Shown: in pieces, positions 36,159 through 63,720 of the stretch
How positions within the stretch are numbered: position 1 is the stretch's first letter
How the letters are laid out: each line of letters opens with the position of its first letter
Virus record (IMG/VR): IMGVR_UViG_3300042565_001021
Location: 32,001 to 96,000 of that record
Origin: a virus
Reading direction: 5' to 3' (one strand)
DNA: 64,000 nucleotides
The notes under the pieces: generated by a model
Told to the model about the DNA's origin: nothing
Seen by the model: only the letters and a program-made list of their open reading frames with translations
The model's database searches: none
Translations under genes and position numbers: made by a program

Positions 36159-36473
36159 TTACGCCCATTTTAGTTTCAATAGCGTCATTACCTCTTCGGA
36201 AACGTCGTACCACACACCTTTCACTTGCCGAACAATGAAGTAATCTTTATCTTCTACAAATGTTGCTCGTATCCATGTTAGCACTTTAGCATCGGCGGTA
36301 ATTGAATACATAGTCACACCGTCGACTACTGCCGATTCTAATACTGAATACATTTTTAATACCCCATACATCGGTTGAACTCCGACAATCTCGGCCGCAA
36401 TTAGATTAGGTACTATTCTTCGTATAAACGGAATCAGTACTTTTTGAAATTCTGTATGGTCTATCATAACCAT
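36159..36473 (-). CDS. Gol-peptide-like major capsid fragment fused to an LKW domain
   Basis: VLIPFIRRIVPNLIAAEIVGVQPMYG. Confidence 0.75.
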   Translation of the reverse strand: MVMIDHTEFQKVLIPFIRRIVPNLIAAEIVGVQPMYGVLKMYSVLESAVVDGVTMYSITADAKVLTWIRATFVEDKDYFIVRQVKGVWYDVSEEVMTLLKLKWA

Positions 36474-44893: not shown

Positions 44894-45850
44894 TTACCAC
44901 TCTCCTGTTTTACGTGTGATTTTGTTGATCCGTTCTTGAAGGTCGATTACGTGAGCCCGTTGGGCGCGACATTCATCTTCAAGGTCAATGATTCTTTGCC
45001 GCAAGCGTTCAATCGTACCTGCTGCTTCGTCGCACGTATCCGAAATTCGGTCAGGCTTGCCATCCTTAGTGCGGCCGATCTTACGCCGGATCTCTGACCG
45101 CAGTTTTAGTTTTTCGAGGATGTCTTGCTCCTCGAATGGTTTTTCATTCTTTGCCGTCATACACTTCCCAGTCGTGCTTCCTACAGTCCCAATGGCGGTG
45201 ATCGTAAATCTTAGCGTTCAACGTGTAGCCAAACAGATTGATTTCAAACGACGGGCCTGCGTGGTCACTGCCTTTCCAGTTGAGATCAACCGCAAGCTCG
45301 AGCACGTTGTAAGCGTAGCGAGAGAACTGAACCTCCCACGACTTGTTTTCGCAGATTGGTCCAGTAGTACAACCGAGATTCTCAAACTCGCCGTGCTTGA
45401 ACGGATTACGGATAGCAAACCAGATATTAATCATCCTTGGAACCCCTTAATAATTAATTCGCGCACGTTTTTCTTCCTTTGTTCTGTAGTCGAACCGGTG
45501 GCGTTTGCCGACCAGCCTGTAGAATTTCTTGTCCATTTTCTTGCCCAGCCACAACAGTGACAGGACAGTAACAGCGCCGATAGCAATGTCAGTTAGTGTT
45601 CTTTCAGTTGTTTGCTTTTTAGCCATTACAGCTTTTCTCCTGGAGTTATGTCAGCCCACTTCTTCCCGATGCGCCACGCTGACTCCGGAATAAACATTAT
45701 CGTTGAACCCAATCCTACTGCCATCGGGTTTGCCTTTTGCTCAGCGGCGTTGCTTACCTTTGCCGCTTCTTTTGCCTTTTGAAAAGTAGCAAGGTCCGGA
45801 AACCCAAACTCCTCAAAGTTCGTCCCGTCCAGTTTTCCTAAGTATTTCAC
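44894..45850 (-). other. Four small genes (44894-45160, 45144-45434, ~45447-45626, 45626-45850)
   Basis: Coupled minus-strand ORFs. Confidence 0.6.
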
Positions 45851-47256
45851 AGTTTCTCTCCCTTAGCAAAGCCGCGCCACGTCTTGAAGCGCGGGAACCT
45901 CATGCTCCAGTAATCGTTGTCGTCGGACTTAGTCAGCGCGTCTGCGCGGATCTCGCCAATGTCGCCAACGCAGCTCGGGCCGTTCGGCACTTCCGTTATC
46001 GTCTCCCACTTGCCCTTTACCTTCTTCTGCCAGGTAACCGGCTTGCCAGTGAAGTTCGCCCAAATCTGCGCACGTTGTTGAATGCTGTAACCACCACCGC
46101 AGGTGACCTTTACCTTCTTGCTGTCAACCACGCCTTCGAACACGATCGCGCCCATTGTGCCTTTGAACTTGCTGTCGGGCTTGCCTTCTTCGACATCGAC
46201 CGCAGTAAGCGACTCTTCGATGAACGGCTTCATCTTCATCCAGTTCAGCGAACGCTTACACTCGTACAGCGCCTCCGGATCCTTCAGCATAATGCCTTCG
46301 TACTTGCCCAGGAGCGCCAGTGCGTTGATTTCTAGCAACCGCGCCTTGCCTTCCTTAGTGTCCAGATCCACAAGTTCGGTGCCTACAACCGTTACGTTGG
46401 GCAGCTTGTCGCAGAATATGTTGGTGGACCAGTATATCAACGAAGCCGTGCGCGCCGCCTGCTTCTCGGTACTCTTGCCAGCTAAGAACTCGCTGAGTGG
46501 AAGGAAGTCAAACAAGTTGAGCACCGTGTCGTCTGCTTGGACGTCGGTCTTGCGCTTCGCTTGCTTCATCAAGTCCTGGAAGCTAGCGGACATCACTTCG
46601 CCGTCGAACACCATTGGATATCGGAGTTGCGACGCAATTGTCGCAAACTGCGATTTGATCTTTTCGAAGTTGAACAGCTCTTTGCCGTTGCGCGAATACT
46701 GGTTCACCTTGCCGTCGGGATAAACGATTGTGATGCAGCGCATGCCGTCAAGCTTGACGTCGATAATTTTCTTGCCGCACAGCAATTCCTCGGCTACGTT
46801 GCCTTCGTCGTCCACGCAGTCCTTAGCGAGCTGCACTTCGAACACCGGAATTGCGTATTTGGGGAAATCTTTTTCGCACACCTTGTTAACTGTGCTTTCG
46901 CTGAAGCCCGCCTTGAGGTCCTTTATAAGCACCAGGCGGTACCAGCCGTTCCATTCTTCGGTCGTTGCCAGTGCCATTGCTGCGCCAATTGCGTCCTGCG
47001 CAGCGTCACCAGTCAGCTTGCGCTCAGCAAGTTCCTGACACAGGTTGAAAAACATAGCAGGCGCAAGTCCAGGGCCGCTCTTCTTGCTTTCGGGCACCTT
47101 CTTCACTCCCAGTGTCAGCATCGGATCATACGCAATGCGAATGCCCCGGAACAGGTCATCATTGCCTGCTATGGCTTCTTGGAGCAGGAAGGTTTGTTTG
47201 GCCAGCTTTGAGTCGTTTGCTGTAATCTTCGCTAGCACAGTCCAGGGTTTGTTCAT
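45847..47256 (-). CDS. ATP-dependent DNA ligase
   Basis: KLDGMR, SRNGK, FDGEV, FDFLP, EGIMLK, WMKMK, RFPRF; start MNKPW after AAGGA. Confidence 0.95.
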   Translation of the reverse strand: MNKPWTVLAKITANDSKLAKQTFLLQEAIAGNDDLFRGIRIAYDPMLTLGVKKVPESKKSGPGLAPAMFFNLCQELAERKLTGDAAQDAIGAAMALATTEEWNGWYRLVLIKDLKAGFSESTVNKVCEKDFPKYAIPVFEVQLAKDCVDDEGNVAEELLCGKKIIDVKLDGMRCITIVYPDGKVNQYSRNGKELFNFEKIKSQFATIASQLRYPMVFDGEVMSASFQDLMKQAKRKTDVQADDTVLNLFDFLPLSEFLAGKSTEKQAARTASLIYWSTNIFCDKLPNVTVVGTELVDLDTKEGKARLLEINALALLGKYEGIMLKDPEALYECKRSLNWMKMKPFIEESLTAVDVEEGKPDSKFKGTMGAIVFEGVVDSKKVKVTCGGGYSIQQRAQIWANFTGKPVTWQKKVKGKWETITEVPNGPSCVGDIGEIRADALTKSDDNDYWSMRFPRFKTWRGFAKGEKL

Positions 47257-47312: not shown

Positions 47313-49495
47313 ACTGTTTTCTTCATTATTCCGCCATATTTTAGCAAGAATATCGTTTCGTCTGCTGGGTTATTCCAGCAGCCATGGAGGTTGATGTTAG
47401 ACTTTAAAACTTCTGTAACCAAATTGAAGCACGTCATGTGATCGTATACGTCTAGGTGCCTACACTTCCTAACCATAAACTTCTTGCGTATTAAGTTGTA
47501 GGCGATAATCGTATCGGCTCTTCCTATAATGTTTAGGTGGCGTATTACAGGAGTAGGCAGCGGATCACCTCTGGGATAAGAAGCAAAAACAAGATACTCC
47601 TCGTCACGCCAGACTAACATGGTTATTCTCTTTCAGCAGGTCGAATACGTGCTGCTTGGCTGCGGTGATTGCAGCTTGCATGAATACTACGTGTAGCAAA
47701 AAGACTGTGCCAATTACAAACCAACCTTGCCAAACAAATATTAAAAGGCAGGCGGTGTCAAAAGTAACGTCGATTATCCGCCAATACTTAGGAGGTAATG
47801 TTTCTGGTTTAGCCGCCAACGCTTTCCACACTGCCGGGACCAACGCCGCGCAGGAGACAATAAACAAAAACCAAACGTAAAACATAACCAAGTTAGCTGC
47901 ACCTTGGACTTGTTCGGCGAACGCAAAATACATCGCAGTTGCGAACAAGCCGTTGGTGCCAGACCAGTAAAAGAATCGTTTCATTTTGTTACTCCTGTAT
48001 CTTTTCGTCCTTGTTTCCGACCTGCGTCGTATGCTGACTTCACTATGCGTTGAAGCAAAGACAAGTCTGCCGGGTTGCTAAAAAATCTATTAGCGAGCTT
48101 GTGGTAAAGGACACTGCCAACCAACCAATCCGAAAAGTTCATATTGCCTCCACATGTTTGCACTTGCTGCGGAACGTAAATCCCTGGCAGGTACAGGTTT
48201 TGTTTACAGGATCAACGTAATACGTTTCGCCCTTGCTGCCTTTAACAGTTACGAGCGTAGGATCCGTCTCGACCACTCTCGCCTCGAAAAGGTTTTGCAC
48301 CTTCTCAAACTTGCGGCCGCGCTTGTCGATTTGCATCGGCTTGGTGAAGTAGGTAACCTCGCCTTTGAAGTTACAAAATGCGAAGCACTTGTCACCTTCA
48401 AGCAGATAAACGCCGGTCGGAGTAGCGTCTTTCCATTGCGTGATTTCGCGGAATGCTTCGGCCATTTTATTTTGCCTTAAAGGAACTACACTTACCAGTT
48501 AAATTCAAGCAAACAAGATTCTTGCGATTCTTGTCGCACTCCAGATACGTCCAAAACTTCTCTGGATCCGGGACCTTAGGTAACAAACTAACATCACCTT
48601 TGTATGTTCCCGACCAGTCGCGAAAAGCATACCCGTCGGCATATTTCCGAACACCGAACTGGCAATCATCGCAGGATACCAGATTAGCCATTTTGGAAAA
48701 CTCCGTACTTGAGAAGCATCATCGCGTATGCTCCTGGGTTGTTAGGTTCTTTGTAGCAGTTGTGACTAATTAGATCGTAGCAGCTCGAGCAAAAGAATCC
48801 AGTAATGCCAAAGTAATCACGGCATGACCACCATTGGCTACCGCGTACATACCGGTTCGGCTTGCCGCAGTGGGTACAGGTCTCAGCCATATATGCCATA
48901 TCCTAAAAATCCAAACCCAGCAAAGCCGATGACCAAAAGCTTTTGCCGGAAGTATCGTGGCGTGCCGCGTGGCGCCGGAGTAATCTGGTTAACAATTTCG
49001 TCGCCTATTAGGAGCACAATAGAAAGTGTTACAAGGAAAGCGCCGAAGATAATAAGACCGGTTTTCATTTTTACACCTTTACTGGAGCAGTGGTTGTAGG
49101 AGTAAGCTCGACTTCGCCAACGAAGTAATCGCTCTGACTTCTCTTTTCGAGCCTCTTCAGTTCCTTTGCTTTCTTCTCTGCAAACGAAAACGTGGCCCAT
49201 GTCATGGCAAGTTCGGGCGCCGGATACCAACACCCGGTAGATTCGCGATATTCAGTAACTCCGGTTGGCCGCACGACGCGGTAAATGTAAAAACGGCGAT
49301 GTGTGTTCATTTTTTGCTCAATTGCCCTTCGCGGTAAGAAACCAGGATTACCAATGCGGTGAACACTGGGCTATATCCTATCCACAGTAAGCTCATTCTC
49401 TCAACTGCATCGGGTTGATCGACATACTGCGCAAAGATAGCGACAGCAAGTAACACCCACGGCATAAAAATTGCTGCTAGTGCAGGGGCTCTCAT
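47300..49495 (-). other. Run of small early genes (membrane, Cys-rich and hypothetical proteins)
   Basis: Packed ORFs 47300-, 47604-, 47981-, 48467-, 48684-, 48883-, 49071-, 49307-. Confidence 0.6.
48139..48465 (-). CDS. SWIM zinc-finger protein
   Basis: GSKGETYYV...CTCQGFTFRSKCKH. Confidence 0.75.
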   Translation of the reverse strand: MAEAFREITQWKDATPTGVYLLEGDKCFAFCNFKGEVTYFTKPMQIDKRGRKFEKVQNLFEARVVETDPTLVTVKGSKGETYYVDPVNKTCTCQGFTFRSKCKHVEAI

Positions 49496-53265: not shown

Positions 53266-53333
53266 TAAAGCAATTATACAGCCTTTTAAAGAAAAGTCAA
53301 CCGGAATCTTAGGTTAAACCTAAGTCATTGATT
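53264..53333 (-). promoter_or_regulatory. Early promoter with IHF-consensus site
   Basis: TTGACT(53295-53300)-N16-TATAAT(53273-53278); TAAGTCATTGATT at 53321-53333. Confidence 0.78.
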
Positions 53334-54559
53334 TAATAGCGTAATCCAGCCATTTCTTCTATGTATTCGCGGAGTTCTTTGTCGATGGCTGGCTTGGCAA
53401 TGATGTTCCAAATGCGATCTTGCACTTCGTATCTCAAATCCATCGAGTCATACAGCGTATCTTTTTCTGCTATGTCTTCGAAGTCCATGTTCATGCTGCC
53501 CAACCAATCGCCTATTATAAACTGTACGTCGGTATCATCTAAGTCCTCGCCTGCTAAGAACATGTCAGAATCTAGGCCGGCTATAATCGCATCGGTTAGT
53601 CCTTGCCCGTCTCGAAGAAGTGCGTTATGTACTAGCGTAGATAACTTTCGAGGAATATGACCGTTGGATTGTTTTGCTAACGTGCGATAAATCGCATCGC
53701 TTACTTTCAACACTAAGTTCCTGTTACTAACTGACCGTAAAATTGTCTCAGCCATACTATGTTTAAGGTTCTCGAAGTCTTCGGCGAATTCTTCGGCACC
53801 AACTACAAACTCAACTACGTTGTTTGCTAATGCCTCGTTCATAAACAGATCAACCACTTGCGGGAACCTTCGTAGTAACGGGTCTAACTTAATAGGTATG
53901 TCCTGTATGTCCATAAACTGTCTGGCGCGGAAATGGAACTGGTACTTTTCTCCAGGACTAACAGGTGCCTTAGGTAAAAGGATGTATAAGTTTCCTTCCT
54001 TGTTGTAACGCTCAAACATGTTATTATTCTTTGCTGCCGTACACCAAGTTGTACCTTGCCCGTAATACTTCGCTGCTTCTACGTTCAGTATATGCAGGAT
54101 CCGTAAAGTGTCGTCGTCGAGCACTACGTTTACTTGTCCTTTATCTACTACGACATCTTGCGGTTCAGGATAAGTAGCAACGGTTTGCTCAAAGTCTTGC
54201 ATTGACCTGAACCGGTTGATATCTCTGTGCTCTGGCTTGAGTTGCTGCTTAGTCTTTAGCTTGTGGAACCGCTCTAACGCAGATGCGCCGCGTGATTCAA
54301 AGTCTTCGTACTTAGTAACGACGCCAAGTTGAGCAGCATAGGTTTTACATAACCACTGGGTGTATTCTTTGTGCGGGGTTGGATCCATTTCCTCGAAACC
54401 CCCAAGCAACCAGTTTATGTCGATTTCCGTTTTATTTAATTCGTCTTGTTGATCGTAAATTGATCGATCCTTTTTAGCAACCGCGAGAAGCTTTTCACCA
54501 AAGTTTTGTGCTGTGGTTTGACGATTGTACTCTACCAGGAATTCTACTGCTCTTACCAT
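53333..54559 (-). CDS. Putative internal virion protein with a PcfJ-like segment
   Basis: Start MVRAVEFLVE; AAKYYGQGTTWCTA...LYIL...KYQFH. Confidence 0.6.
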   Translation of the reverse strand: MVRAVEFLVEYNRQTTAQNFGEKLLAVAKKDRSIYDQQDELNKTEIDINWLLGGFEEMDPTPHKEYTQWLCKTYAAQLGVVTKYEDFESRGASALERFHKLKTKQQLKPEHRDINRFRSMQDFEQTVATYPEPQDVVVDKGQVNVVLDDDTLRILHILNVEAAKYYGQGTTWCTAAKNNNMFERYNKEGNLYILLPKAPVSPGEKYQFHFRARQFMDIQDIPIKLDPLLRRFPQVVDLFMNEALANNVVEFVVGAEEFAEDFENLKHSMAETILRSVSNRNLVLKVSDAIYRTLAKQSNGHIPRKLSTLVHNALLRDGQGLTDAIIAGLDSDMFLAGEDLDDTDVQFIIGDWLGSMNMDFEDIAEKDTLYDSMDLRYEVQDRIWNIIAKPAIDKELREYIEEMAGLRY

Positions 54560-54978
54560 CGCGCCGCTGCCTTTACAAGTTCTATACTTAGTGGTTCTAC
54601 GCTTACTATTTGATCGGGAGTTACCCAGCCTTTCTTCTTTAGCCATTTGCCTTCGTTGCTTGCTTGTGACAACGGATCTGAATCATCTACTTCCCACGTA
54701 TTTATATCGTCGTTAAACGATACGATAGAGACAATGCCCGAGCCCATCTTCTTAGCTAATTCCCATTCCCACTTTGCTGCCCAGCGTGTTGCGTCCTTCT
54801 TGGATGTCATAGCAAAGATCTCGCCAATGTTGCCATACTGGCCGCCTGCTGCTTTAACAAAATTAGTAGGGTTAGCACCAGTAATCCCTTTAGCTTGGAT
54901 TTTTGAAACTGTTACAGTTCTAGTAACGTGATACAAAGTTGCCCCGGTTGATTCAGTTATAAACTCTTTAGCTTTCAT
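54553..54978 (-). CDS. Putative internal virion protein, ADP-ribosyltransferase-like fold
   Basis: MKAKEFITE; LYHVT...IQAKGI...IFA...VTPDQI. Confidence 0.55.
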   Translation of the reverse strand: MKAKEFITESTGATLYHVTRTVTVSKIQAKGITGANPTNFVKAAGGQYGNIGEIFAMTSKKDATRWAAKWEWELAKKMGSGIVSIVSFNDDINTWEVDDSDPLSQASNEGKWLKKKGWVTPDQIVSVEPLSIELVKAAARW

Positions 54979-55829
54979 TACCATCCTCCCGGCGGCTCTG
55001 CAGGCAACCCTGCCCCTTTAAGGTCAGAAGCAGAAACTTTTGCTCCACCAGGTGGTGAAACCGGTTTTGGTTCTTTAACTCCGTTCTTCGAATCTACAAA
55101 TCGTTTCCATAAGCTCTTCTCTATTGCTATACACTTCCCACTAAACCATACCTCGTTTTTCATAGGGTGGTTTAAAGCAAAAGACTTGATAGTTTTAATT
55201 TGCATGCCTGTCCTGTCAGGAGCCATGCCTCTGTTTAAGACATCAATGAAATCCTCTGACCCAACTTTTCCGTTTGACAGATACCGTAACTCTTTTTCTA
55301 CTCTTGGCATCTTTACTGCTTTGACAAACTCAGCGTATGAAGTGTCGGGTAAGTACAGATAGTTTCTACACATGTCAGCGATGCCTTCAAACGTGGTGTG
55401 AATGTTAGGTTCAAACTCTGGCAAATGCGCCTTCACTTCCCATATGTCTTTCTCTGGACAAATGCCTATCCTTGTTCCGTTGAACGGAAATAAAGCATAT
55501 AAAGATCCACCAAATGCGTTAGCATACGTCCGATCACTTGTAGCAATTAAGCTCTTGCTACGCTTTGGCCAAAGTGCGTAATTAGGACTATTGTCCATCA
55601 ATAGCGTATAGTGATTAGAAGTGTTCTGTGACTTGCGCTCGCTGTTTGTTGTATCAATGAACACTAACGGTTCTTGGTGGTCTTTCATTGAACGCCAGAT
55701 CGGATTCTCTAACATAGGCAGAGCTTCTGTACAGTGAGCGTTCAGCAGCTCCATAGCCTTCTCTAGCTGAAGGTTCTCAGCCTGGTATGGGGTAACCGCG
55801 GCTTCAACAGTAAATTCTTTTGCTCTCAT
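54978..55829 (-). CDS. Putative internal virion protein, ART-like; paralogue of 61280-61972
   Basis: MRAKEFTVE; IWRS...RSKSLIATS...FG...NEVW. Confidence 0.55.
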   Translation of the reverse strand: MRAKEFTVEAAVTPYQAENLQLEKAMELLNAHCTEALPMLENPIWRSMKDHQEPLVFIDTTNSERKSQNTSNHYTLLMDNSPNYALWPKRSKSLIATSDRTYANAFGGSLYALFPFNGTRIGICPEKDIWEVKAHLPEFEPNIHTTFEGIADMCRNYLYLPDTSYAEFVKAVKMPRVEKELRYLSNGKVGSEDFIDVLNRGMAPDRTGMQIKTIKSFALNHPMKNEVWFSGKCIAIEKSLWKRFVDSKNGVKEPKPVSPPGGAKVSASDLKGAGLPAEPPGGW

Positions 55830-55831
55830 GA

Positions 55832-56461
55832 TTACTCGAATGTCACCCAAGGATCGGCAGCTATTATAGTCCCGTCTGCTCTCATTAACCAATTCTCAGA
55901 ATGTAGGTCAAGAATGATTTCTGTTAGGTTATGCGCATCAGCATACACTTGCGCAGCTTTATAAAGAAATGTTGTTGCTTCTAATATTCCGCTTACGGTG
56001 TTTGCACCAGTAAGCTTACTGTCAAGTAATACCTGTTCTAATCTATTAGATTCGTAACCTAAACCGTGTCCTTCGCACTTGACTGAGTTGGCGACATCCC
56101 ATAATACATTTGCGAGATAGTCGTTGTTAAGAGGATACAATCGTTCAATTCTGATTTGTAACACTTCCTCTGCGTCTACGTCTATACCATGTATAACCGG
56201 AAAATGTTTACTTTTGTACCCGTGGTCTACACAGAAGTGCACAAATGCCAAAGATGCTTTATGAACTCCTTTATCGGAGCCACCGAACCCGCCGCCTACG
56301 ACTTTAACGACAGTATCAGGGTCAGAAAAATGATTCCACACTGTGGCTGTGTATCCTTTGCCAACTTGGTTCCATCCAGACTGCTTACGAATTTCATCGT
56401 TAACGAATCCTGGGTCAAGCTCGTTTAGCTGTTCGTTCTCGAATAGTTCAGTTAGAAACAT
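55832..56461 (-). CDS. Putative internal virion protein, protein-kinase-like fold
   Basis: MFLTELFE; VGKGYTATVW, VVKV, DLHSENWL, AADP. Confidence 0.75.
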   Translation of the reverse strand: MFLTELFENEQLNELDPGFVNDEIRKQSGWNQVGKGYTATVWNHFSDPDTVVKVVGGGFGGSDKGVHKASLAFVHFCVDHGYKSKHFPVIHGIDVDAEEVLQIRIERLYPLNNDYLANVLWDVANSVKCEGHGLGYESNRLEQVLLDSKLTGANTVSGILEATTFLYKAAQVYADAHNLTEIILDLHSENWLMRADGTIIAADPWVTFE

Positions 56462-56468
56462 AATATTC

Positions 56469-57017
56469 TCATAATGTGAACAGTGGACCTTGGATAAACC
56501 AGGTCTCTGTCCTTTCTTTAATCATTCCGTTGCGTAAAGCTTCGATGACGTCGGGTGTAAAGTCTCGATTCCGCCAACCTGATATTATCAGATGTGTTTC
56601 GACCGGAGCGTTACCTTCGAGCTCTAACTGGGCATTCATTCGGTGTCTACCTTCGTGCCCAGTTACCCAAGCCGGGAGAATAAACTTTCCGTTCTCCCAT
56701 TCTTCGTCTACGCTTATGTATAGTGTTGGTGCGCCGAAGCTTCCTCCGGTTCGAGCATGATTTTTCATTTTTTCAATGCTGCTTCTTGCTGAGTCGTCAA
56801 CGGTCAAGTTGCTTGCTAAATTTAAGAACTTGCTTGGCTTCATCATCACCCGCAGGCCCATGTAATCGATTTCTTGGTTGTTAGGCGTCTGGCCCCAACC
56901 TGATTGGTTATCAATGTTTAGCTCAGTAATTCTTGTCAACTCTTCAGACAACACCTTATCGACTTCTTTCTGAAGAATATCAAATACCGTTTCGTTAATG
57001 AATTCTTGTGCTCTCAT
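56469..57017 (-). CDS. Putative internal virion protein, ParB/Srx-like motif
   Basis: MRAQEFINE; GAPTL...GHEGRHR. Confidence 0.55.
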   Translation of the reverse strand: MRAQEFINETVFDILQKEVDKVLSEELTRITELNIDNQSGWGQTPNNQEIDYMGLRVMMKPSKFLNLASNLTVDDSARSSIEKMKNHARTGGSFGAPTLYISVDEEWENGKFILPAWVTGHEGRHRMNAQLELEGNAPVETHLIISGWRNRDFTPDVIEALRNGMIKERTETWFIQGPLFTL

Positions 57018-57868
57018 TAGTCGTTCGCTCCTGGCGCCCACATATCTCCGTTAGGCTTAAAGCTAGTGCTGTTGCTGTTCGATCCGCTCTTATCAATTCC
57101 TGGGCGGGCTCCCCTCTCGTCGCTAGAGACGACCTTGTCACCGCTAACATCGCTGCTCCGTTCGTCTCGTTCGTCTGAGTAAAAATATCCTTGCTCGTCA
57201 CTGAATACCTGATCTGCTTCGGAATACCACGGGTCAGCAGCTATGATAGTTCCGTTTGGCCTCATTAACCAGTTGCCGCCGTGCAAATCTATCCAGCCTT
57301 CGTTTATATTGTGAGCTTCCAAATAAACTGGTAAGGCCTTGCTCAAATACTTAATAGCTTCGACTATCTCGTCGACGTTATTGTTCTCTTTCATGCCCTG
57401 TATTCCTGAATACTTCATTGCTGACAGCAATTCGATTTTCGATTTAGTTAATGCTGCGCCGCCGGTAACAGCATTAGCTAATCTGCTTAGACCGCTCCTT
57501 ACGTCACCGCTACTAATAGGAAGCAACTTCTCCATTCTGATCTGTAATACTTCGGCGTCGTCTATGTTTATTCCGTGAACGATAGGATAGTGCTTACTCG
57601 TGTGTCCGTGATCAACTAGAAAGTGAATAAACGCTAAAGTAATATTTCGATAGCCACCTTGCGCTTCGTAGTCTCCACCACCGACTACTTTAACTACGGT
57701 GTCTGGTTCTTGATAGTGTTGCCAAACTGACGCAGTAGCACCTTGTCCTAGCTTATCCCAGGCTCGTAAGTTTTTAAACTTACCTTGTGATTGCTGCTTG
57801 ATAACCTGGTTAACATAATCCGGGGCAAGTTCGGTTAGTTCAGTGTCAAATAATTCAGTTAGGAACAT
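57017..57868 (-). CDS. Putative internal virion protein, protein-kinase-like fold
   Basis: MFLTELFDTE; LGQGATASVW, VVKV, DLHGGNWL, AADP. Confidence 0.75.
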   Translation of the reverse strand: MFLTELFDTELTELAPDYVNQVIKQQSQGKFKNLRAWDKLGQGATASVWQHYQEPDTVVKVVGGGDYEAQGGYRNITLAFIHFLVDHGHTSKHYPIVHGINIDDAEVLQIRMEKLLPISSGDVRSGLSRLANAVTGGAALTKSKIELLSAMKYSGIQGMKENNNVDEIVEAIKYLSKALPVYLEAHNINEGWIDLHGGNWLMRPNGTIIAADPWYSEADQVFSDEQGYFYSDERDERSSDVSGDKVVSSDERGARPGIDKSGSNSNSTSFKPNGDMWAPGAND

Positions 57869-57877
57869 AGTTAGTAT

Positions 57878-58822
57878 TTACCTGTCGAACAATGCTGCGA
57901 TTTCTGCGGATTTCTTAGCTAACATCTCTTTAGTGTACTTTGCCTTCTCTATTGCCGCAGGGGTTTCTGCTTTGGCGAACTTACTGCTATTTATCGCTGT
58001 GTTGATTTTACCTAAGTAGATTTCTTTTACTCTCGGAATAAGTTCTTCTTTGCCTACGCTCTGTAAGATGCCTTTAATACTGTCGATCATATCGGCTACG
58101 CGGACTTCTCCGCCTACTAACCCGGGATACTGCTTAACTAACGGAGATGGTGTTCCTCCGAAAAACTTAACTATGTCAAGTGCCCAGGTCTTTGGGTTGT
58201 TAGTGACTGTCTTTAGGTCAACATCCTTAACTGTGCGGAACGGGACGAATGTGCCATTTTGGAATTTTGCTTGAACTCCGTGGCCGCCGCCGATGCTCAG
58301 ATTGAGGACTTCACCGAGCGACGAGTAAAGTGAGTTTGCTAACACACCTTTCATGTTCCACTCTGGCCGTAGTGCGTTAGTCCAGTCTTTATTCTCGTAG
58401 TAAGATGTGATTAGGTCGATCTGAACATAATCGTTTCCTATCTTTAGGATAACATTAACGCCGTTGTCTGAAGAAAAAGCAGAGGTTGAATCGCAAAACT
58501 CTTTAATAGCGTCGTTGTAGATCTTAAGGTTTGCGTTATTTGTGGTTCCTTCAATGCGTGGGATATGGAACTGGACATCAACGTCGCCATACTCTTTGTC
58601 TGGCTGTTGAACTAAGTCCCGTTCGTAGTATGTTGCGCTGCCACCCGGTGCCGATATCTCTGTTGGTCCTAATCCTTTTGTCTTTAGGAAGTTGTTCAAG
58701 GCGGGAATAAACTGAGTAGTTAATACCTTCATACATTGCTGAACGAGCCGTGGGGTAATAACTGTGTTTTGTGTTAGTGTCGATGCCCATCCACCTTCTA
58801 AAATAATTTCGTTAATTTTCAT
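57878..58822 (-). CDS. Putative internal virion protein, Pol-beta-like nucleotidyltransferase
   Basis: MKINEIILE; GGS...GDVDV...VQIDL. Confidence 0.6.
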   Translation of the reverse strand: MKINEIILEGGWASTLTQNTVITPRLVQQCMKVLTTQFIPALNNFLKTKGLGPTEISAPGGSATYYERDLVQQPDKEYGDVDVQFHIPRIEGTTNNANLKIYNDAIKEFCDSTSAFSSDNGVNVILKIGNDYVQIDLITSYYENKDWTNALRPEWNMKGVLANSLYSSLGEVLNLSIGGGHGVQAKFQNGTFVPFRTVKDVDLKTVTNNPKTWALDIVKFFGGTPSPLVKQYPGLVGGEVRVADMIDSIKGILQSVGKEELIPRVKEIYLGKINTAINSSKFAKAETPAAIEKAKYTKEMLAKKSAEIAALFDR

Positions 58823-59604
58823 AATATGTTCTTATCCCCAATAAACCAGGTTGTATTCATAAGATTTTCACTCATTTCCTTATTAGTTTTTAGATGTCGA
58901 GTCATCTTACTTTCAATGAATATTTCGCTTGGTCCTGCTTTTTCATATGCTGCTTCATTCCATTCTTTTTCTAAAGAGTTGATATCCGGGAAATCACCGG
59001 TTTGATCAGTTAATGTTAATCCTCTACCTTTAGCTAAGATAAGTTTCTTAAGCCATGTAAATCCTTCAGGAGTTAACCCTTCATTTTTTGAGATTTGTAT
59101 TTTTACTACAGCTTTAAGACGATGTGTTACGCAGCCAATTAATGCAGTAACATAACCGGGACCATTAACAAAGTTCCTAATTCCTTTTAACTCATTTCCT
59201 TTTAGTATTACTAGTGCATCAATACTGTCATCACCAATGAACGAGTAGACATCTTGATCATTTATATTACAGTGATATACATCTTTACCATCTAAACTAT
59301 TTACAATTTGAGATTTAGTAATTATTTGATTTTTCATATCTTGAGTTATATCTAATGCAGAATGGGCGTAGTCAATTTCAGTTAACCCTTCTTCGTTTGT
59401 CATCAACTTTTTAACACGCGGCTTGAATAGCTGGACATCTCCCTTATCGGTCTTTAACACTGGCTGATTGTGCTTATCCTTCTTAAAGCCTTTGATCTCG
59501 GCAGGGCTGTTCTTAAATTTACCCTTCATTACAACATCCCCGGTTTCCAATTCCGGAGGTTGGTAGGTTTCTGCACCTTCTACAATAAACTCGTTTGCTC
59601 TCAT
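58819..59604 (-). CDS. Putative internal virion protein (two-domain)
   Basis: MRANEFIVE; internal GLTE junction. Confidence 0.55.
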   Translation of the reverse strand: MRANEFIVEGAETYQPPELETGDVVMKGKFKNSPAEIKGFKKDKHNQPVLKTDKGDVQLFKPRVKKLMTNEEGLTEIDYAHSALDITQDMKNQIITKSQIVNSLDGKDVYHCNINDQDVYSFIGDDSIDALVILKGNELKGIRNFVNGPGYVTALIGCVTHRLKAVVKIQISKNEGLTPEGFTWLKKLILAKGRGLTLTDQTGDFPDINSLEKEWNEAAYEKAGPSEIFIESKMTRHLKTNKEMSENLMNTTWFIGDKNIL

Positions 59605-60011
59605 TCTTTGTTGCCACCTTTATATAGATCAGCAATACCTTTGCCAAAGTCATTTCCGTTGTATATACGCATAGACGATGGGATAATATCGTTGCCTAAC
59701 TCTTTAGCAAAGACATACATCTCTTTCGCAATACCTTGTCGGCGATACTCTGGCTTTACTTCGACGAATACTGCTTCTAAGTTGTTGTCTGTCACTTTGT
59801 ATGTTACGTTGCCTACTTTGTTGCCTTTAGCAGTGAAGGCGTCAATGTGAAAGTTTTCGCTTGTATTAATCTTCTTAGTTGGCGAATACGGTAGCGGGCC
59901 GTGGTATGCTTTAAGCATATACTTGCCGCCGAGTATCTCTTTCGTCTTTTCAAACCCGCGGCGGAATACTTGCGGGTTGATGCTGTCAGTTATGAACTCA
60001 GATGATTTCAT
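59601..60011 (-). CDS. Putative internal virion protein, GNAT acetyltransferase
   Basis: MKSSEFITD; VEVKPEYRRQGIAKEMY acetyl-CoA motif. Confidence 0.75.
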   Translation of the reverse strand: MKSSEFITDSINPQVFRRGFEKTKEILGGKYMLKAYHGPLPYSPTKKINTSENFHIDAFTAKGNKVGNVTYKVTDNNLEAVFVEVKPEYRRQGIAKEMYVFAKELGNDIIPSSMRIYNGNDFGKGIADLYKGGNKE

Positions 60012-60448
60012 TGCACTCCTTTAATTACTAATCGCCAATCACTAAATTTTAATCGCAACACAGTTAAGAACTGATCTTTATCTGACTCAGTCTGAAATAG
60101 TAAAGTGTTACTAAGCTTATCCCCACTAACTCGCTCACCGTCCGGAAATCGATATATCTGTCCTAAGTATTCAAAATAAAACATGTCAGTTTGATGATCT
60201 TGTAATACTACTGGACCAGAAAAGTGTTTCACTGATAATAATTTACCAAGAGGAATAACAAGAAAACTAACTGGAGAAACCTTTGCCCCGATCTGCGGTG
60301 TAACTTGTTGCTGTTGAGCCAAGAAACTTTGAAGAATCTTAAAATCATCATTATCCTCAAATAACTCAGGACGATCTAATAGCATAATACGGACATCCTC
60401 GTATTGCTCATCTAACACATCAATATAAGAGAACTCAGAGGATTTCAT
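60008..60448 (-). CDS. Putative internal virion protein
   Basis: MKSSEF N-terminus. Confidence 0.55.
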   Translation of the reverse strand: MKSSEFSYIDVLDEQYEDVRIMLLDRPELFEDNDDFKILQSFLAQQQQVTPQIGAKVSPVSFLVIPLGKLLSVKHFSGPVVLQDHQTDMFYFEYLGQIYRFPDGERVSGDKLSNTLLFQTESDKDQFLTVLRLKFSDWRLVIKGVQ

Positions 60449-60870
60449 ATTTGCTGTAACACCGGAATTGATGTTAACCCTAATTCAATAGCTCGTTGCA
60501 CACGGTGATTTCCGTCTATTATAAAACCATCTTTAGCTAATACCGGTGGAGTTTGAGTTAAACTTTGATAAGTAACATTTCTGGCGCGAGCCTGGTCCAT
60601 TTTAAATGGATCAGAGTTAATAATATCCGTCCCTGCTTCTTGATCGCTAAACGTTCTATATCGAGATGCTTCGTCAGAACTAATATTTGTTAATTTATAT
60701 TTGTGCTTAGAGATATACGTCCTATCACCTGCACCCAAATACATGTGCTCATCTAAATAATCTGCTACTACACTTCCGCGCACTATGTCACCAGGTTTGC
60801 CCCAAGCAAAGCCAACAACTCGCTTAATAAAGTCGATCAACCCCTCAGTTATGAATTCTGTCGACTTCAT
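60445..60870 (-). CDS. Putative internal virion protein, ParB/Srx-like domain
   Basis: MKSTEFITE; PPVL...IIDGNHRV...IPV. Confidence 0.7.
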   Translation of the reverse strand: MKSTEFITEGLIDFIKRVVGFAWGKPGDIVRGSVVADYLDEHMYLGAGDRTYISKHKYKLTNISSDEASRYRTFSDQEAGTDIINSDPFKMDQARARNVTYQSLTQTPPVLAKDGFIIDGNHRVQRAIELGLTSIPVLQQI

Positions 60871-61280
60871 TATCTCTTCCGTGTGCAAGCAGGGTGTGAA
60901 CCGTCACTCAATGATTTGCGGATTGCTTCGGAGTAGCGTGTCCATTTCGTTAGCTCTGCGTCGCTCAGTTCCATAAAGCGATTGTCCATCTCTACCCAGG
61001 CTTTTTCAATATCCGTTAATGGTTTGTTATACTGGTATTCGTGCTCGCGGATCTTATCTTCAGCGTTGATTGCTGCTGCGCGATGCTGTACAATACACTT
61101 CTTCGCTGCTTCGCTTGCTGCACCAGAATCAAAACGGTTCTTACCTTCAAAGCGTCCAATCTCTTTGCCATCAGCAGTAGCTACGAAGGTGTTCGTTAAA
61201 TCACCATCCTCGTCTTGGAGGCGGGTAATCTCATACTTTACCTTGCGAGCATCTTCTTTTAGGAATTCTTTGCTTAACAT
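60870..61280 (-). CDS. Putative internal virion protein
   Basis: MLSKEFLKE. Confidence 0.55.
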   Translation of the reverse strand: MLSKEFLKEDARKVKYEITRLQDEDGDLTNTFVATADGKEIGRFEGKNRFDSGAASEAAKKCIVQHRAAAINAEDKIREHEYQYNKPLTDIEKAWVEMDNRFMELSDAELTKWTRYSEAIRKSLSDGSHPACTRKR

Positions 61281-61972
61281 TAAACGGTTTCTCCCCAGGC
61301 AGTCATTAAGTTAACCACCATGCTGTCATTGTTTGGTCCATACAAAGGGAGTAAATAAAAAGACTCAGCGTGTAGCATAACTTCGTTTTTACTTCTGACT
61401 GCTTCTTTAACTGCGCCGACTTGATAGTCCCCGTCATCAAGCATCCATTTAATGGCCCCTATTAGGTTACGGTTGTTAGTATCTCCAACCCAATAACTCT
61501 TGCTAAATCCCGCTGCGGCAACTACCTCGCTAGGATAATGGTTAAACAAGAACATGTCGAGATGCTCAGTAAGGTCAGATATCTCGGGCGACCAACAAGC
61601 AGTAAATTCTCCTCTTGGAATGACTAATAAAGGATTGCCGTAGTCTCTAGCCATACCTTGAGATCCGGTCGCAAACAAAGCATTACTTCTGAACTTTATG
61701 CCAGTCGTTTCCTCGAAATATGCGTCGGCAATCTGATGAATAGCAAGGGGAGTATCTTTTGGCTTTCTGTTGACCGGGCACATGAGCACAGTGACTTGGT
61801 CAACACCCCTTCTTCCGTGATATAAGTCGTGCCTGTATAAGTCAAAGTCGATGGACTTTAGGTAAGGTTGACACTCGCTTTTTAGTACCTCAGCAAAACG
61901 GCGGAATTCCGGGGAGATAACAATTTCTTTCCCGGCTACAGTTACTTCAGTTATAAATTCAGAGCTTTTCAC
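61280..61972 (-). CDS. Putative internal virion protein, ART-like
   Basis: MKSSEFITE (GTG start); LYHG...RSNALFATGS...YG...NEVML. Confidence 0.55.
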   Translation of the reverse strand: MKSSEFITEVTVAGKEIVISPEFRRFAEVLKSECQPYLKSIDFDLYRHDLYHGRRGVDQVTVLMCPVNRKPKDTPLAIHQIADAYFEETTGIKFRSNALFATGSQGMARDYGNPLLVIPRGEFTACWSPEISDLTEHLDMFLFNHYPSEVVAAAGFSKSYWVGDTNNRNLIGAIKWMLDDGDYQVGAVKEAVRSKNEVMLHAESFYLLPLYGPNNDSMVVNLMTAWGETV

Positions 61973-62002
61973 TACTCGACATCCTTGGACATCGAGTATT
62001 TA
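61973..62002 (-). promoter_or_regulatory. Late promoter overlapping an RBS hairpin
   Basis: TAAATA (61997-62002) overlaps TACTCGATGTCC-AA-GGATGTCGAGTA, which ends at the GTG start. Confidence 0.65.
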
Positions 62003-62007
62003 TCTGT

Positions 62008-62595
62008 TTAGCGTCGAGTAATGATTTCGTCCACTAAGCCAAAGTCCAGGGCTTCTTGTGCGGACATGAAATTATCACGCTCCATGGCAGCAGCAAATTC
62101 GTCAAACGTCTTGCCTTTGCTATTGTGATCAACGTAGATCTGCGTAAGAACCTTCTTCATTTTGAGGATTTCTTCGACCTGAATAAGCATGTCCGTTGCT
62201 TGACCACGTGCACCACCGCTAGGTTGGTGAATCATGTGTCGTGCATACGGGAGGATCATGCGCTTACCTTTCGCGCCTGCTTGAGCAAGCAACGAACCCA
62301 TGCTACAGGCCTGACCCATTACGATAGTGCGAACGTCACACTTTACGAATTGCATGGTATCGTAGATGGCCATACCTGCCGTTACGATGCCGCCCGGGGA
62401 GTTGATGTAAAAGATAATCTCTTTGTCTGCATCTTCTGCTTCAAGGAACAACATTTGCGCTACGACTACGCTAGACGACACCTCGTTTACGTCATCGTGA
62501 AGCATAACGATACGGTCTTTAAGCAAGCGACTGTAGATATCGTAGCTACGTTCGCCTTTAGCGGTTTGCTCGACTACCATTGGAATAAGGGACAC
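62008..62595 (-). CDS. clpP: ATP-dependent Clp protease proteolytic subunit
   Basis: [39 protein letters not shown]. Confidence 0.97.
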
Positions 62596-62662: not shown

Positions 62663-62736
62663 ATAAATAAAAGTGCAGTTCGCGATGTTGAAGCATCCAA
62701 CTGCCCTAGACTAACCAGGAGGCTATATGTCCAGCA
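62663..62736. ncRNA. Conserved two-hairpin element, copy 4
   Basis: GCAGTT/AACTGC stem, CGC bulge, GATG/CATC stem; CTAGAC/GTCCAG stem enclosing AGGAGG. Confidence 0.7.
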
Positions 62737-63275
62737 ATAATACTTATTACGTTTACGCATATCTGCGCAATAAAGACTCAAAAACTGCTAAAGCAGGAAC
62801 ACCTTATTATATTGGCAAAGGATCAGGACGACGCGCCTGGGTAACCCATAAACATAAGACCCCGGTGCCGAAAGATAAAACGTTTATTGTTCTACTTGAA
62901 CAGAATTTAACTGAAGTCGGAGCATTAGCCTTAGAGAGGAGAATGATTGCTTGGCATGGAAGAAAAGATTTAGGAACAGGCATTCTATTAAATAGAACAG
63001 ACGGAGGAGACGGTTGTAGCGGAGTTATTATGTCTGAATTAACTAAAGAAAAACGTAATGCTGCGCAAAGAGGAAAGAAGTTGTCAGAAGAACATAAGAG
63101 AAAAATATCTGTCGGTTCAAAATCAAGACCGCCTATATCCGAAGAAACGAGAGAAAAATTTAGGCTACGAAACAAAAACCGGGCGCCGATGACAGCTGAA
63201 GAGAGGGTAAAATTATCAATTGCAGTAACGCAGTCATGGGCAAGAAGAAAATTACTTAAATCTTCTGCCGCTTAA
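62727..63275 (+). CDS. GIY-YIG homing endonuclease with NUMOD3; paralogue of 14368-15027
   Basis: [26 protein letters not shown]...LLNRTDGGDG; LSEEHKRKIS. Confidence 0.85.
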   Translation: MSSNNTYYVYAYLRNKDSKTAKAGTPYYIGKGSGRRAWVTHKHKTPVPKDKTFIVLLEQNLTEVGALALERRMIAWHGRKDLGTGILLNRTDGGDGCSGVIMSELTKEKRNAAQRGKKLSEEHKRKISVGSKSRPPISEETREKFRLRNKNRAPMTAEERVKLSIAVTQSWARRKLLKSSAA

Positions 63276-63720
63276 TCCATTTGATTTCATCATATGTTGT
63301 TTTCAACGGAATACCAAAGCTTGCTAATTTCTTTCGAAATATGAAAAACGAAGGACCATGACTTAAGAGCGGAGCCCTACCTGAAGTTATTCTATCGGCG
63401 CCAAGGACCGACCATTGGTATTGATGGCACATTTCATGCGCTAGGATCATTATCATCCATTGAATACAGAAGAACCTGTAATTTAGCTTTATCTTCGTGT
63501 AATGCTTCGGCTCAGAAAAGCCTATACACATTCCCCACACGTTTAGGTTGCGTAGGTTGATGCTTGGGTGTTTTAACTTACCGTCGAATATATGGGTATT
63601 TAATAGATCGTATGCTTGGTGCACATCTTCTATTTTAGGCTGATACTTCTTCTTCCGCTGATAACGCTTACTAGGCAACGGAATCTTCATTAGTTCGATA
63701 AGGGAAGTAGAAGGAAGCAC
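63256..63720 (-). CDS. SprT-like zinc metalloprotease
   Basis: ILAHEMCHQYQ...SHGPSF. Confidence 0.8.
   Translation of the reverse strand: MLPSTSLIELMKIPLPSKRYQRKKKYQPKIEDVHQAYDLLNTHIFDGKLKHPSINLRNLNVWGMCIGFSEPKHYTKIKLNYRFFCIQWMIMILAHEMCHQYQWSVLGADRITSGRAPLLSHGPSFFIFRKKLASFGIPLKTTYDEIKWIKRQKI

Follow-up and report, generated by a model that had tools for sequence, protein, structure and literature searches.

A tandem array of 13 genes with a common N-terminal leader

The 64,000-nucleotide window analysed here comprises bases 32001-96000 of one 155,045-bp viral contig from IMG/VR, which belongs to an uncultured jumbo phage related to T4 and which CheckV rates as 44% complete. Within this window, 13 contiguous minus-strand genes, here named A01 to A13, tile the region from 61972 down to 53333 (coordinates are those of the window unless stated otherwise), with overlaps of 1-7 bases or gaps of at most 10 bases between neighbours and no leaderless gene between them. 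All 13 proteins carry a leader of 9-10 residues at the extreme N-terminus. From the upstream end, the array consists of A01 (61280..61972, GTG start codon, 230 amino acids (aa), leader MKSSEFITE), A02 (60870..61280, 136 aa, MLSKEFLKE), A03 (60445..60870, 141 aa, MKSTEFITE), A04 (60008..60448, 146 aa, the variant MKSSEFSY with L-D-E at residues 12-14), A05 (59601..60011, 136 aa, MKSSEFITD, in which Asp replaces Glu), A06 (58819..59604, 261 aa, MRANEFIVE), A07 (57878..58822, 314 aa, MKINEIILE), A08 (57017..57868, 283 aa, MFLTELFDTE), A09 (56469..57017, 182 aa, MRAQEFINE), A10 (55832..56461, 209 aa, MFLTELFENE), A11 (54978..55829, 283 aa, MRAKEFTVE), A12 (54553..54978, 141 aa, MKAKEFITE) and A13 (53333..54559, 408 aa, MVRAVEFLVE followed by Y). 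Four of the 13 starts sit inside the longest open reading frame (ORF), and the leader ATG there is the one abutting the preceding stop.

When the first 12 residues were removed, BLASTP detected similarity among the remaining bodies only between A08 and A10, weakly to a third kinase-like gene outside the window, and between A01 and a paralogue outside the window. The description given in the initial annotation, that unrelated domains follow a shared start, is therefore correct, and the 13 N-termini that it listed were all present on the minus strand where it had placed them. Pfam was blank or below cut-off for 12 of the 13 proteins, PADLOC gave 0 matches for the 10 members searched, and neither megablast of the region nor tblastn of A07 against 50,697 phage records returned a match.

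A core resembling the T4 late promoter, ATAAATA (61997..62003, minus strand), lies 31 nt upstream of A01, just past the clpP stop, and 4 of the contig's 9 leader-gene units have the exact motif in the 60 nt upstream of them (binomial P ~1e-6). The single late promoter initially proposed for the array is matched by this motif, whose action as a promoter is predicted from its sequence. At the other end, a palindromic hairpin with a 7-bp stem (53308..53324) directly follows the last array stop and may end the transcription unit, making one late operon plausible. A sigma-70-like promoter (TTGACT, 16-nt spacer, TATAAT; 11/12 matches; 53273-53300, minus strand) follows the hairpin and would serve the next gene, suggesting that a late unit gives way here to an early one.

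The leader is maintained as a peptide

A strict leader pattern was matched by 21 ORFs on the 155-kb contig, compared to 0 in the reversed sequence, and a looser scan gave 23 convincing genes, 10 of which lie outside the array. The recurrence of the leader exceeds chance. The ten additional genes are found at contig coordinates 11932-13149, 24900-27368, 27386-27748, 110454-111041, 119956-120729, 130498-131362, 136412-138233 and 139643-140668, and include those for an 822-aa protein, a third kinase-like protein (phrog_15752, 2e-5), a DUF6267 protein and a paralogue of A01.

To follow the leader independently of its own sequence, homologues were gathered by similarity of the protein body alone, and [LI]-x-E was scored within residues 4-13. 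The motif was present in 16/22 members of the A11 family, 22/30 of the A08 family and 125/148 of the A13 family, while control windows deeper in the same homologues contained it in at most 14/148. Relatives at 25-60% identity still have a leader, but of a changed class. Leaders of the kinase-like A08 family vary among MFLTELF, MRATEFI, MRANEFL, MISKEFL and MKINEVI; those of A07 orthologues are MKINEIILEGGW or MRAREFILEGGW, the latter replacing the A07 leader in orthologues at 31-56% identity. At the DNA level, the 13 leaders use synonymous codons (Glu GAA/GAG 18:7; Phe TTT/TTC 6:8), and the longest exact run common to any two of them is 12 bases. Synonymous variation, together with persistence through class swaps, points to a selected peptide signal that tolerates several forms, with selection acting on the peptide rather than on the DNA. 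In the AlphaFold2 models of both A08 and A11, the leader forms a low-confidence N-terminal extension beyond the fold.

The shared start might instead be a feature of the nucleic acid, a portable translation-initiation or recombination cassette whose peptide is idle, as translational coupling links most array genes and a Shine-Dalgarno sequence is missing from several. However, beyond the short identical runs and synonymous codons noted above, the amino-acid pattern persists in orthologues with identities as low as 25-45%. We reject a DNA-level start cassette because no leader DNA is conserved, and regard this explanation as hardly credible. A narrow DNA pattern for M-[KR]-x-x-E-F-x-x-E found just 0-4 sites in each of five near-complete relatives; because every lineage has its own leader variant, these counts are no census of cargo.

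The leader matches the N-termini of T4 head proteins

The array leader classes MK-x-x-EFITE, MFLTELFD-x-E, MKINEII-x-E and MLSKEFLKE each have a counterpart among the N-termini of T4 head proteins (taken from NC_000866), namely those of ipII and ipIII (MKTYQEFIAE), alt (MELITELFDE), gp24 (MAKINELLRE) and gp22 (MLKEQLIAE), respectively. The likeness extends to individual members, as the leaders of A08, A07 and A02 resemble those of T4 Alt, gp24 and gp22. In the same T4 record, gp21 begins with MNEPQLLIE and gp67 with MEGLIE.

MKTYQEFIAE is the capsid targeting sequence in T4 internal proteins IPII and IPIII (and IPI) (Mullaney and Black 1996, as cited in PMC9958956 and PMC3012670). T4 gp21 cuts after the Glu of I/LxE motifs (PMC12991175), and the processing site of T4 Alt is ITE-6 (PMC5694885). 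The T4 proteins compared here all enter the prohead, and their processing by gp21 is described in reviews. A gp21-type [LI]-x-E stands at the leader end in 11 of the 13 array genes.

Leader proteins are present in the virions of cultured relatives

Because the contig lacks a prohead protease and its capsid match is confined to a 30-residue segment, the key steps were examined in relatives. Homologues of A01 and A11 occur in the cultured jumbo phages Atu_ph07, RsoM2USA and SCTP-2. In Atu_ph07 (NC_042013), tblastn located A11 at 45693-46373 (gp058) and A01 at 48018-48740 (gp061), both of which are virion proteins, and the record has as many as seven sites similar to A01 or A11. Moreover, Atu_ph07 has its own tandem overlapping array, gp53-gp63, whose products start with M-[RK]-W-x-Q-L-[TN]-E or a near variant. 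When the 490 kb of Atu_ph07 were searched with a DNA pattern for M-x-W-x-x-L-x-E, 13 gene starts matched (gp53-62, gp381, gp408 and gp482), compared to 1 for a control pattern.

Counted by annotated gene number, 13/13 of these proteins are in the virion proteome obtained by electrospray ionization tandem mass spectrometry (ESI-MS/MS), with 2-31 unique peptides each (Attai et al. 2018, PMC6102473, Supplementary Table S5). With 131 of 714 proteins being in the virion overall, this corresponds to a hypergeometric P of 1.6e-10. A looser motif adds gp43, gp63, gp394, gp487, gp548, gp561 and gp672, and a hand count then places ~20 of 22 convincing leader proteins in the virion. The Atu_ph07 homologues of array proteins are detected in virions at 12-46% sequence coverage and are therefore not fully degraded. 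A term search of the Atu_ph07 paper (PMC6102473) found no mention of a shared leader. Three other Atu_ph07 virion proteins (gp33, gp206 and gp594) have a second N-terminal motif, [KR]-[FY]-x-N-I-[LI]-[NS]-E-S-Y, at approximately residues 6-15, which includes [LI]-x-E and may represent another leader class.

PA5oct encodes an A13 homologue, gp279, whose annotation as a structural protein carries ESI-MS/MS support. A leader-like 128-aa gene of this phage (MKIKEIILEN; undetected in virions) adjoins gp212 in the region 179881-181020 of NC_071039, and gp212 is a second annotated head maturation protease (ESI-MS/MS) besides the S77 protease gp331. Packaging of the array proteins is indirectly supported by the virion presence of leader homologues in these relatives.

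Mass spectrometry gives no protein location, and the Atu_ph07 particle bears whisker-like appendages and contains many proteins that are unassigned (PMC6102473). The leader could in that case be a docking tag that fixes exchangeable proteins to the virion exterior, at whiskers, fibres or decoration sites. We consider this unlikely: the leader has its counterparts at the N-termini of head-internal T4 proteins and closes with a prohead protease site, the kinase, nucleotidyltransferase (NTase) and ADP-ribosyltransferase (ART) folds predicted below need cytoplasmic nucleotide or NAD+ as co-substrates and make little sense outside the particle, and Pfam and PHROG searches found no adhesin-like or fibre-like domain among the array proteins.

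Prohead protease, capsid genes and ClpP in the lineage

Of the 16 records with an A13 homologue, 13 contain the S77 (gp21-type) prohead protease, PF03420, among them all 5 whose completeness is 90% or more; the three records lacking it are fragments. The S77 protease is also present in Atu_ph07 and PA5oct. About half of the S77 proteases of the lineage have [LI]-x-E near their own N-terminus, like T4 gp21. As far as sequence analysis and data from relatives reach, the T4-type capsid targeting leader proposed in the initial annotation is upheld by the match to T4 N-termini, the proteases of the lineage and the virion-located leader homologues of Atu_ph07, the contig itself being without a prohead protease. 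In a 104-aa ORF of the window (36159-36473, minus strand), the segment RRIVPNLIAAEIVGVQPM matches positions 3-32 of the Pfam Gp23 model (1.7e-8), which presumably corresponds to T4 gp23 near its Gol region.

Directly upstream of the array, clpP (62008-62595, minus strand) encodes a full cellular-type ClpP (PF00574, 8e-75) sharing 69% identity with that of Agrobacterium phage Atu_ph07 and ~70% with that of Sinorhizobium phage Phosso. PHROGs class this protein as 'head maturation protease', an assignment that we reject in view of its full cellular-type sequence and the separate S77 protease in the lineage. With a bona fide clpP ending 4 nt before the promoter-like motif, the leader might be thought a degradation or regulatory tag, for example an N-terminal degron that is read by Clp and times turnover. 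We reject a ClpP degron because the adjacency of clpP and array is not conserved, clpP lying at 463 kb and the leader array at 39-50 kb in Atu_ph07; furthermore, leader proteins accumulate in virions, and the acidic leader resembles the T4 capsid targeting leaders. This explanation is accordingly very improbable. Near clpP, the window also contains a homing-endonuclease-like gene (62727-63275, plus strand; phrog_15526, 1.6e-21; phrog_314, 6.5e-9) and, just beyond clpP, a SprT-like metalloprotease gene (63256-63720, minus strand; PF10263, 1e-6).

Predicted folds and motifs of the array proteins

The A08 model (AlphaFold2) has a predicted local distance difference test score (pLDDT) of 73.8, with leader residues 1-9 below 50. 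Its top Foldseek matches are all protein kinases or aminoglycoside/choline kinases (PAK5, DDR2, APH(2'')), with probability up to 1.0, an E-value of 5e-4 and low template modelling (TM) scores of ~0.3. In the A08 family, K60 is invariant, and D194-L-H-x-x-N199 and D212 are nearly invariant. A10 is a paralogue of A08 (46% identity) and weakly matches phrog_15752, a T7 gp0.7-type protein kinase (4e-4). The fold matches, together with the conserved Lys, the D-x-x-x-x-N loop and the metal-binding Asp, support a predicted protein-kinase-like fold for A08 and A10.

The A11 model is of higher confidence (pLDDT 86; leader residues 1-11 below 50). While a Foldseek search of the model against the PDB gave nothing significant, VIA-align returned, at low scores, BC2332 (Z 6.4), Arr (Z 5.8) and diphtheria toxin (Z 4.9), followed by cholix toxin, tankyrase, PARPs, CteC and pertussis toxin. 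R90, S93 and E226 are invariant in the A11 family; the NAD-binding triad of the ART superfamily is R-S-E or H-Y-E. A11 matches phrog_12810 (4e-31) and A01 matches phrog_11975 (4.9e-26), and the comparison of A01 with the A11 family by hhalign gave a probability of 91%. No Pfam family was matched by either protein, and hence no ART model of the Alt/VIP2 type. A01 and A11 are placed in one superfamily, for which these data hint at an ART-like fold. Sequence searches of the PDB with A07, A08, A11 and A13 found nothing meaningful.

For A07, an Atlas feature score of 0.97 linked the protein to a cluster auto-named 'Nucleotidyltransferase family protein', and structural comparison gave TM scores of 0.83 to a DUF6267 cluster and 0.45-0.56 to Pol X palm clusters. 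G61-S62 and D80-x-D82, corresponding to the NTase motif G-[GS] then D-x-[DE], are invariant in the family. Pfam, PDB sequence and PDB profile searches gave nothing for A07. We take a Pol-beta-type nucleotidyltransferase or DUF6267-like fold as a lead for this protein.

A05 matched two Pfam families below their curated cut-offs, Acetyltransf_CG (6.7e-5; 23.4 bits vs 30) and Acetyltransf_1 (1e-3; 19.8 vs 20.7), and contains an RRQGIA motif, so that a resemblance to GNAT acetyltransferases is a lead. A03 likewise gave sub-cut-off matches, to Pfam ddrB-ParB (0.064; 13.8 bits vs 27.6) and to a ParB-like PHROG (6.5e-4), and has a DGNHR motif in its C-terminal segment, which is weakly ParB/Srx-like; six BLASTP matches were found among the leader ORFs of related loci, where its linkage cluster has 12 members. 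A09 has a conserved H-x-G-R-x-R motif and gave no match in Pfam or PHROGs, nor a meaningful one in a PDB profile search; its domain is also found at the C-terminus of leader proteins of 536-744 aa in relatives. Neither A03 nor A09 gave a family match above cut-off, and ParB/Srx-like membership was not assigned to them. The domain claims made initially thus hold to different extents: the kinase-like assignment stands by fold and motifs and the NTase as a lead, while the ART-like assignment has weak fold support and the GNAT and ParB-like ones come down to sub-threshold matches.

No Pfam, PHROG or PADLOC match was found for A02 and A04. A06 has one leader-bearing homologue, which adjoins an A13-type gene in a related locus (L049). 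A12 and the A11 family have nothing in common but the leader. The A13 family is virus-only, has a GTxWCT motif and is very large (4,755 representative clusters at E<=1e-3); 107 of the best 150 clusters open with an MRAKEFLxEY-type leader, and E10 and Y11 are invariant. A relation of A13 to PcfJ is at most a distant lead. In a metagenomic protein of 553 aa (P0064), an A12-like N-terminal region and an A13-type domain are joined in one polypeptide, A12 and A13 being neighbours in the window. The junction, V-L-F-E-Y, retains the Glu-Tyr that is invariant in the A13 family, and P0064 may be a polyprotein cut by the prohead protease.

Leader-bearing genes differ widely among related phages

The IMG/VR loci surrounding 80 A13 homologues together span 1.29 Mb and contain 314 ORFs with the strict leader, compared to 0 in the reversed control. 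They often form tandem overlapping arrays, with 12 leader genes in less than 10 kb in L049. The 337 leader proteins from the related loci and the contig fall into 86 sequence families, of which 54 are singletons. Cassette content, when compared across relatives, differs greatly, as the initially proposed idea of a 'plug-in cassette' expects.

This diversity bears on the main rival explanation, namely that the leader does target the prohead but some or all of the proteins act inside the particle, as scaffold or core, DNA-packing or capsid-lining proteins that are degraded or retained and are not host effectors. T4 gp22, gp67, gp21 and gp24 have the same kind of N-terminus, T4 core proteins are degraded (PMC9958956), and A02, A04, A06 and A12 are without enzyme-like features. 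On the other hand, at least 5 members have enzyme-type folds or motifs (two kinase-like, one NTase-like and two ART-like), the cargo varies as widely as would be expected of accessory rather than structural proteins, and the Atu_ph07 homologues, given their coverage in virions, are not fully degraded. We therefore consider action inside the particle improbable, though less so than any of the other alternatives.

A proposed route from leader to host

We propose that the 13 genes form a late-expressed cassette of head cargo with T4-type capsid targeting leaders, which would undergo gp21-type processing and be delivered with the DNA, and we put the probability of this reading at roughly 0.6. By analogy with T4, the leader would take each protein into the scaffolding core of the assembling prohead, where a gp21-type (MEROPS S77) protease would cut after the Glu of the leader [LI]-x-E. 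The mature protein would remain in the head alongside the DNA and enter the host on infection, and the enzyme-like bodies could act there ahead of any phage gene expression. The cargo would comprise two kinase-fold and two ART-like proteins, a single NTase-like one, possibly a GNAT and a ParB/Srx-like protein, and several others. We regard the leader, and what it means in relatives, as well supported; from these we infer that the leader does the targeting and is cleaved off, and that the proteins are packaged in this phage, are ejected and act as enzymes on their targets. The array proteins are probably pre-made cargo delivered with the DNA.

Several observations weigh against this proposal. 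Support for this phage itself is indirect, the evidence coming from relatives and T4. No prohead protease was found on the 44%-complete contig, and its sole capsid-gene match, the gp23-like segment of 30 residues, lies in an unrelated ORF outside the array. Two leaders have imperfect sites, with no Glu at position 9 in A04 and an I-T-D end in A05. Two small leader-like ORFs of Atu_ph07 are undetected in the virion, and in PA5oct, where the loose leader motif is noisy, an ESI-MS/MS note is attached to 3 of 5 convincing leader-like proteins including gp279, the two small ones being without it. Virion mass spectrometry, moreover, does not separate internal from external proteins. The T4 scaffold proteins gp22 and gp67, which are degraded and undelivered, bear the same kind of leader; the leader therefore indicates head entry, not ejection. 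The ART, GNAT and ParB fold calls are weak. Finally, most array proteins are acidic, whereas the T4 internal proteins are small and basic.

If the leader marks head cargo, the proteins acting before phage gene expression could be listed from sequence for thousands of uncultured phages, and the kinase-fold, ART-like and NTase-like members of the array would be a shortlist of candidate host-takeover or anti-defence enzymes. To our knowledge, protein kinases and nucleotidyltransferases have not yet been known as virion-delivered phage effectors. The natural set of leaders also provides candidates for loading foreign proteins into phage heads, and reading the leader offers a testable account of many unassigned Atu_ph07 virion proteins. 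A broader and more tentative proposal, which we find possible but somewhat doubtful, is that the leader 'grammar' (M, basic/hydrophobic, acidic/amide, aromatic/aliphatic, [LI]-x-E) allows the full injected proteome of a very large uncultured clade of T4-related jumbo phages to be read from sequence, with dozens of pre-made enzymes per phage, including packaged kinases and NTases, exchanged as plug-in cassettes.

Comparison with known systems

The array resembles the T4 internal proteins in its leader of 9-10 residues with a core of E-F-I-x-E ending in a gp21 site, in the unrelated bodies behind a conserved leader, and in the location of the genes outside the head-gene cluster. Different from T4, which has three internal proteins and Alt, 13 such genes are in one putative operon here and at least 23 are on 44% of the genome, and the array proteins are mostly acidic and enzyme-sized rather than small and basic. 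In T4, packaging and cleavage have been demonstrated, whereas for this phage both are predicted. The T-even internal proteins have been described as a diverse set with only the capsid targeting sequence in common (PMC3012670).

T4 Alt is a head-packaged ADP-ribosyltransferase with the leader MELITELFDE (PMC5694885). A08 and A10 have a TELFD core with [LI]-T-E at residues 3-5, similar to Alt, and their cargo would likewise be an enzyme and not a DNA-binding protein. However, the bodies behind this Alt-type leader are predicted to have a kinase fold, and the ART-like A01 and A11 have a leader of the internal-protein type.

Atu_ph07, a Rak2-related jumbo phage (PMC6102473), also has tandem overlapping leader genes in gp53-gp63, with leaders ending in L-x-E. 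It is of the same phage group, as seen in ClpP and the gp21-type protease, and its gp58 and gp61 are homologous to A11 and A01. Unlike the array described here, the Atu_ph07 array is apparently mostly one expanded paralogue family, and its leader is M-[RK]-W-x-Q-L-[TN]-E.

In phiKZ and SPN3US, ejection proteins have N-terminal propeptides that are removed by an S80 prohead protease (PMC5694885, PMC7411985). There, too, many head-internal proteins undergo prohead protease cleavage after Glu before being ejected into the host, but these phages are of another lineage, their protease is of another family with the motif S/A/G-x-E, and most of the propeptides exceed 100 residues. Effector domains packaged in the head as fusions to MuF or portal have also been reported, as have polyvalent proteins (Iyer et al. 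2021, 2022; PMC7824862, PMC9503650). The idea of ART, GNAT and other enzymes being packed in the head, injected and early-acting is common to these systems and to our proposal, whereas the array consists of separate small genes, each with its own short leader, and not of fusions to MuF or portal or giant multidomain proteins. Taken together, the kind of system is known from the T4 capsid targeting sequence and from head-packaged effectors, and what is new here is the scale, the predicted enzyme cargo and the interchangeable leader classes.

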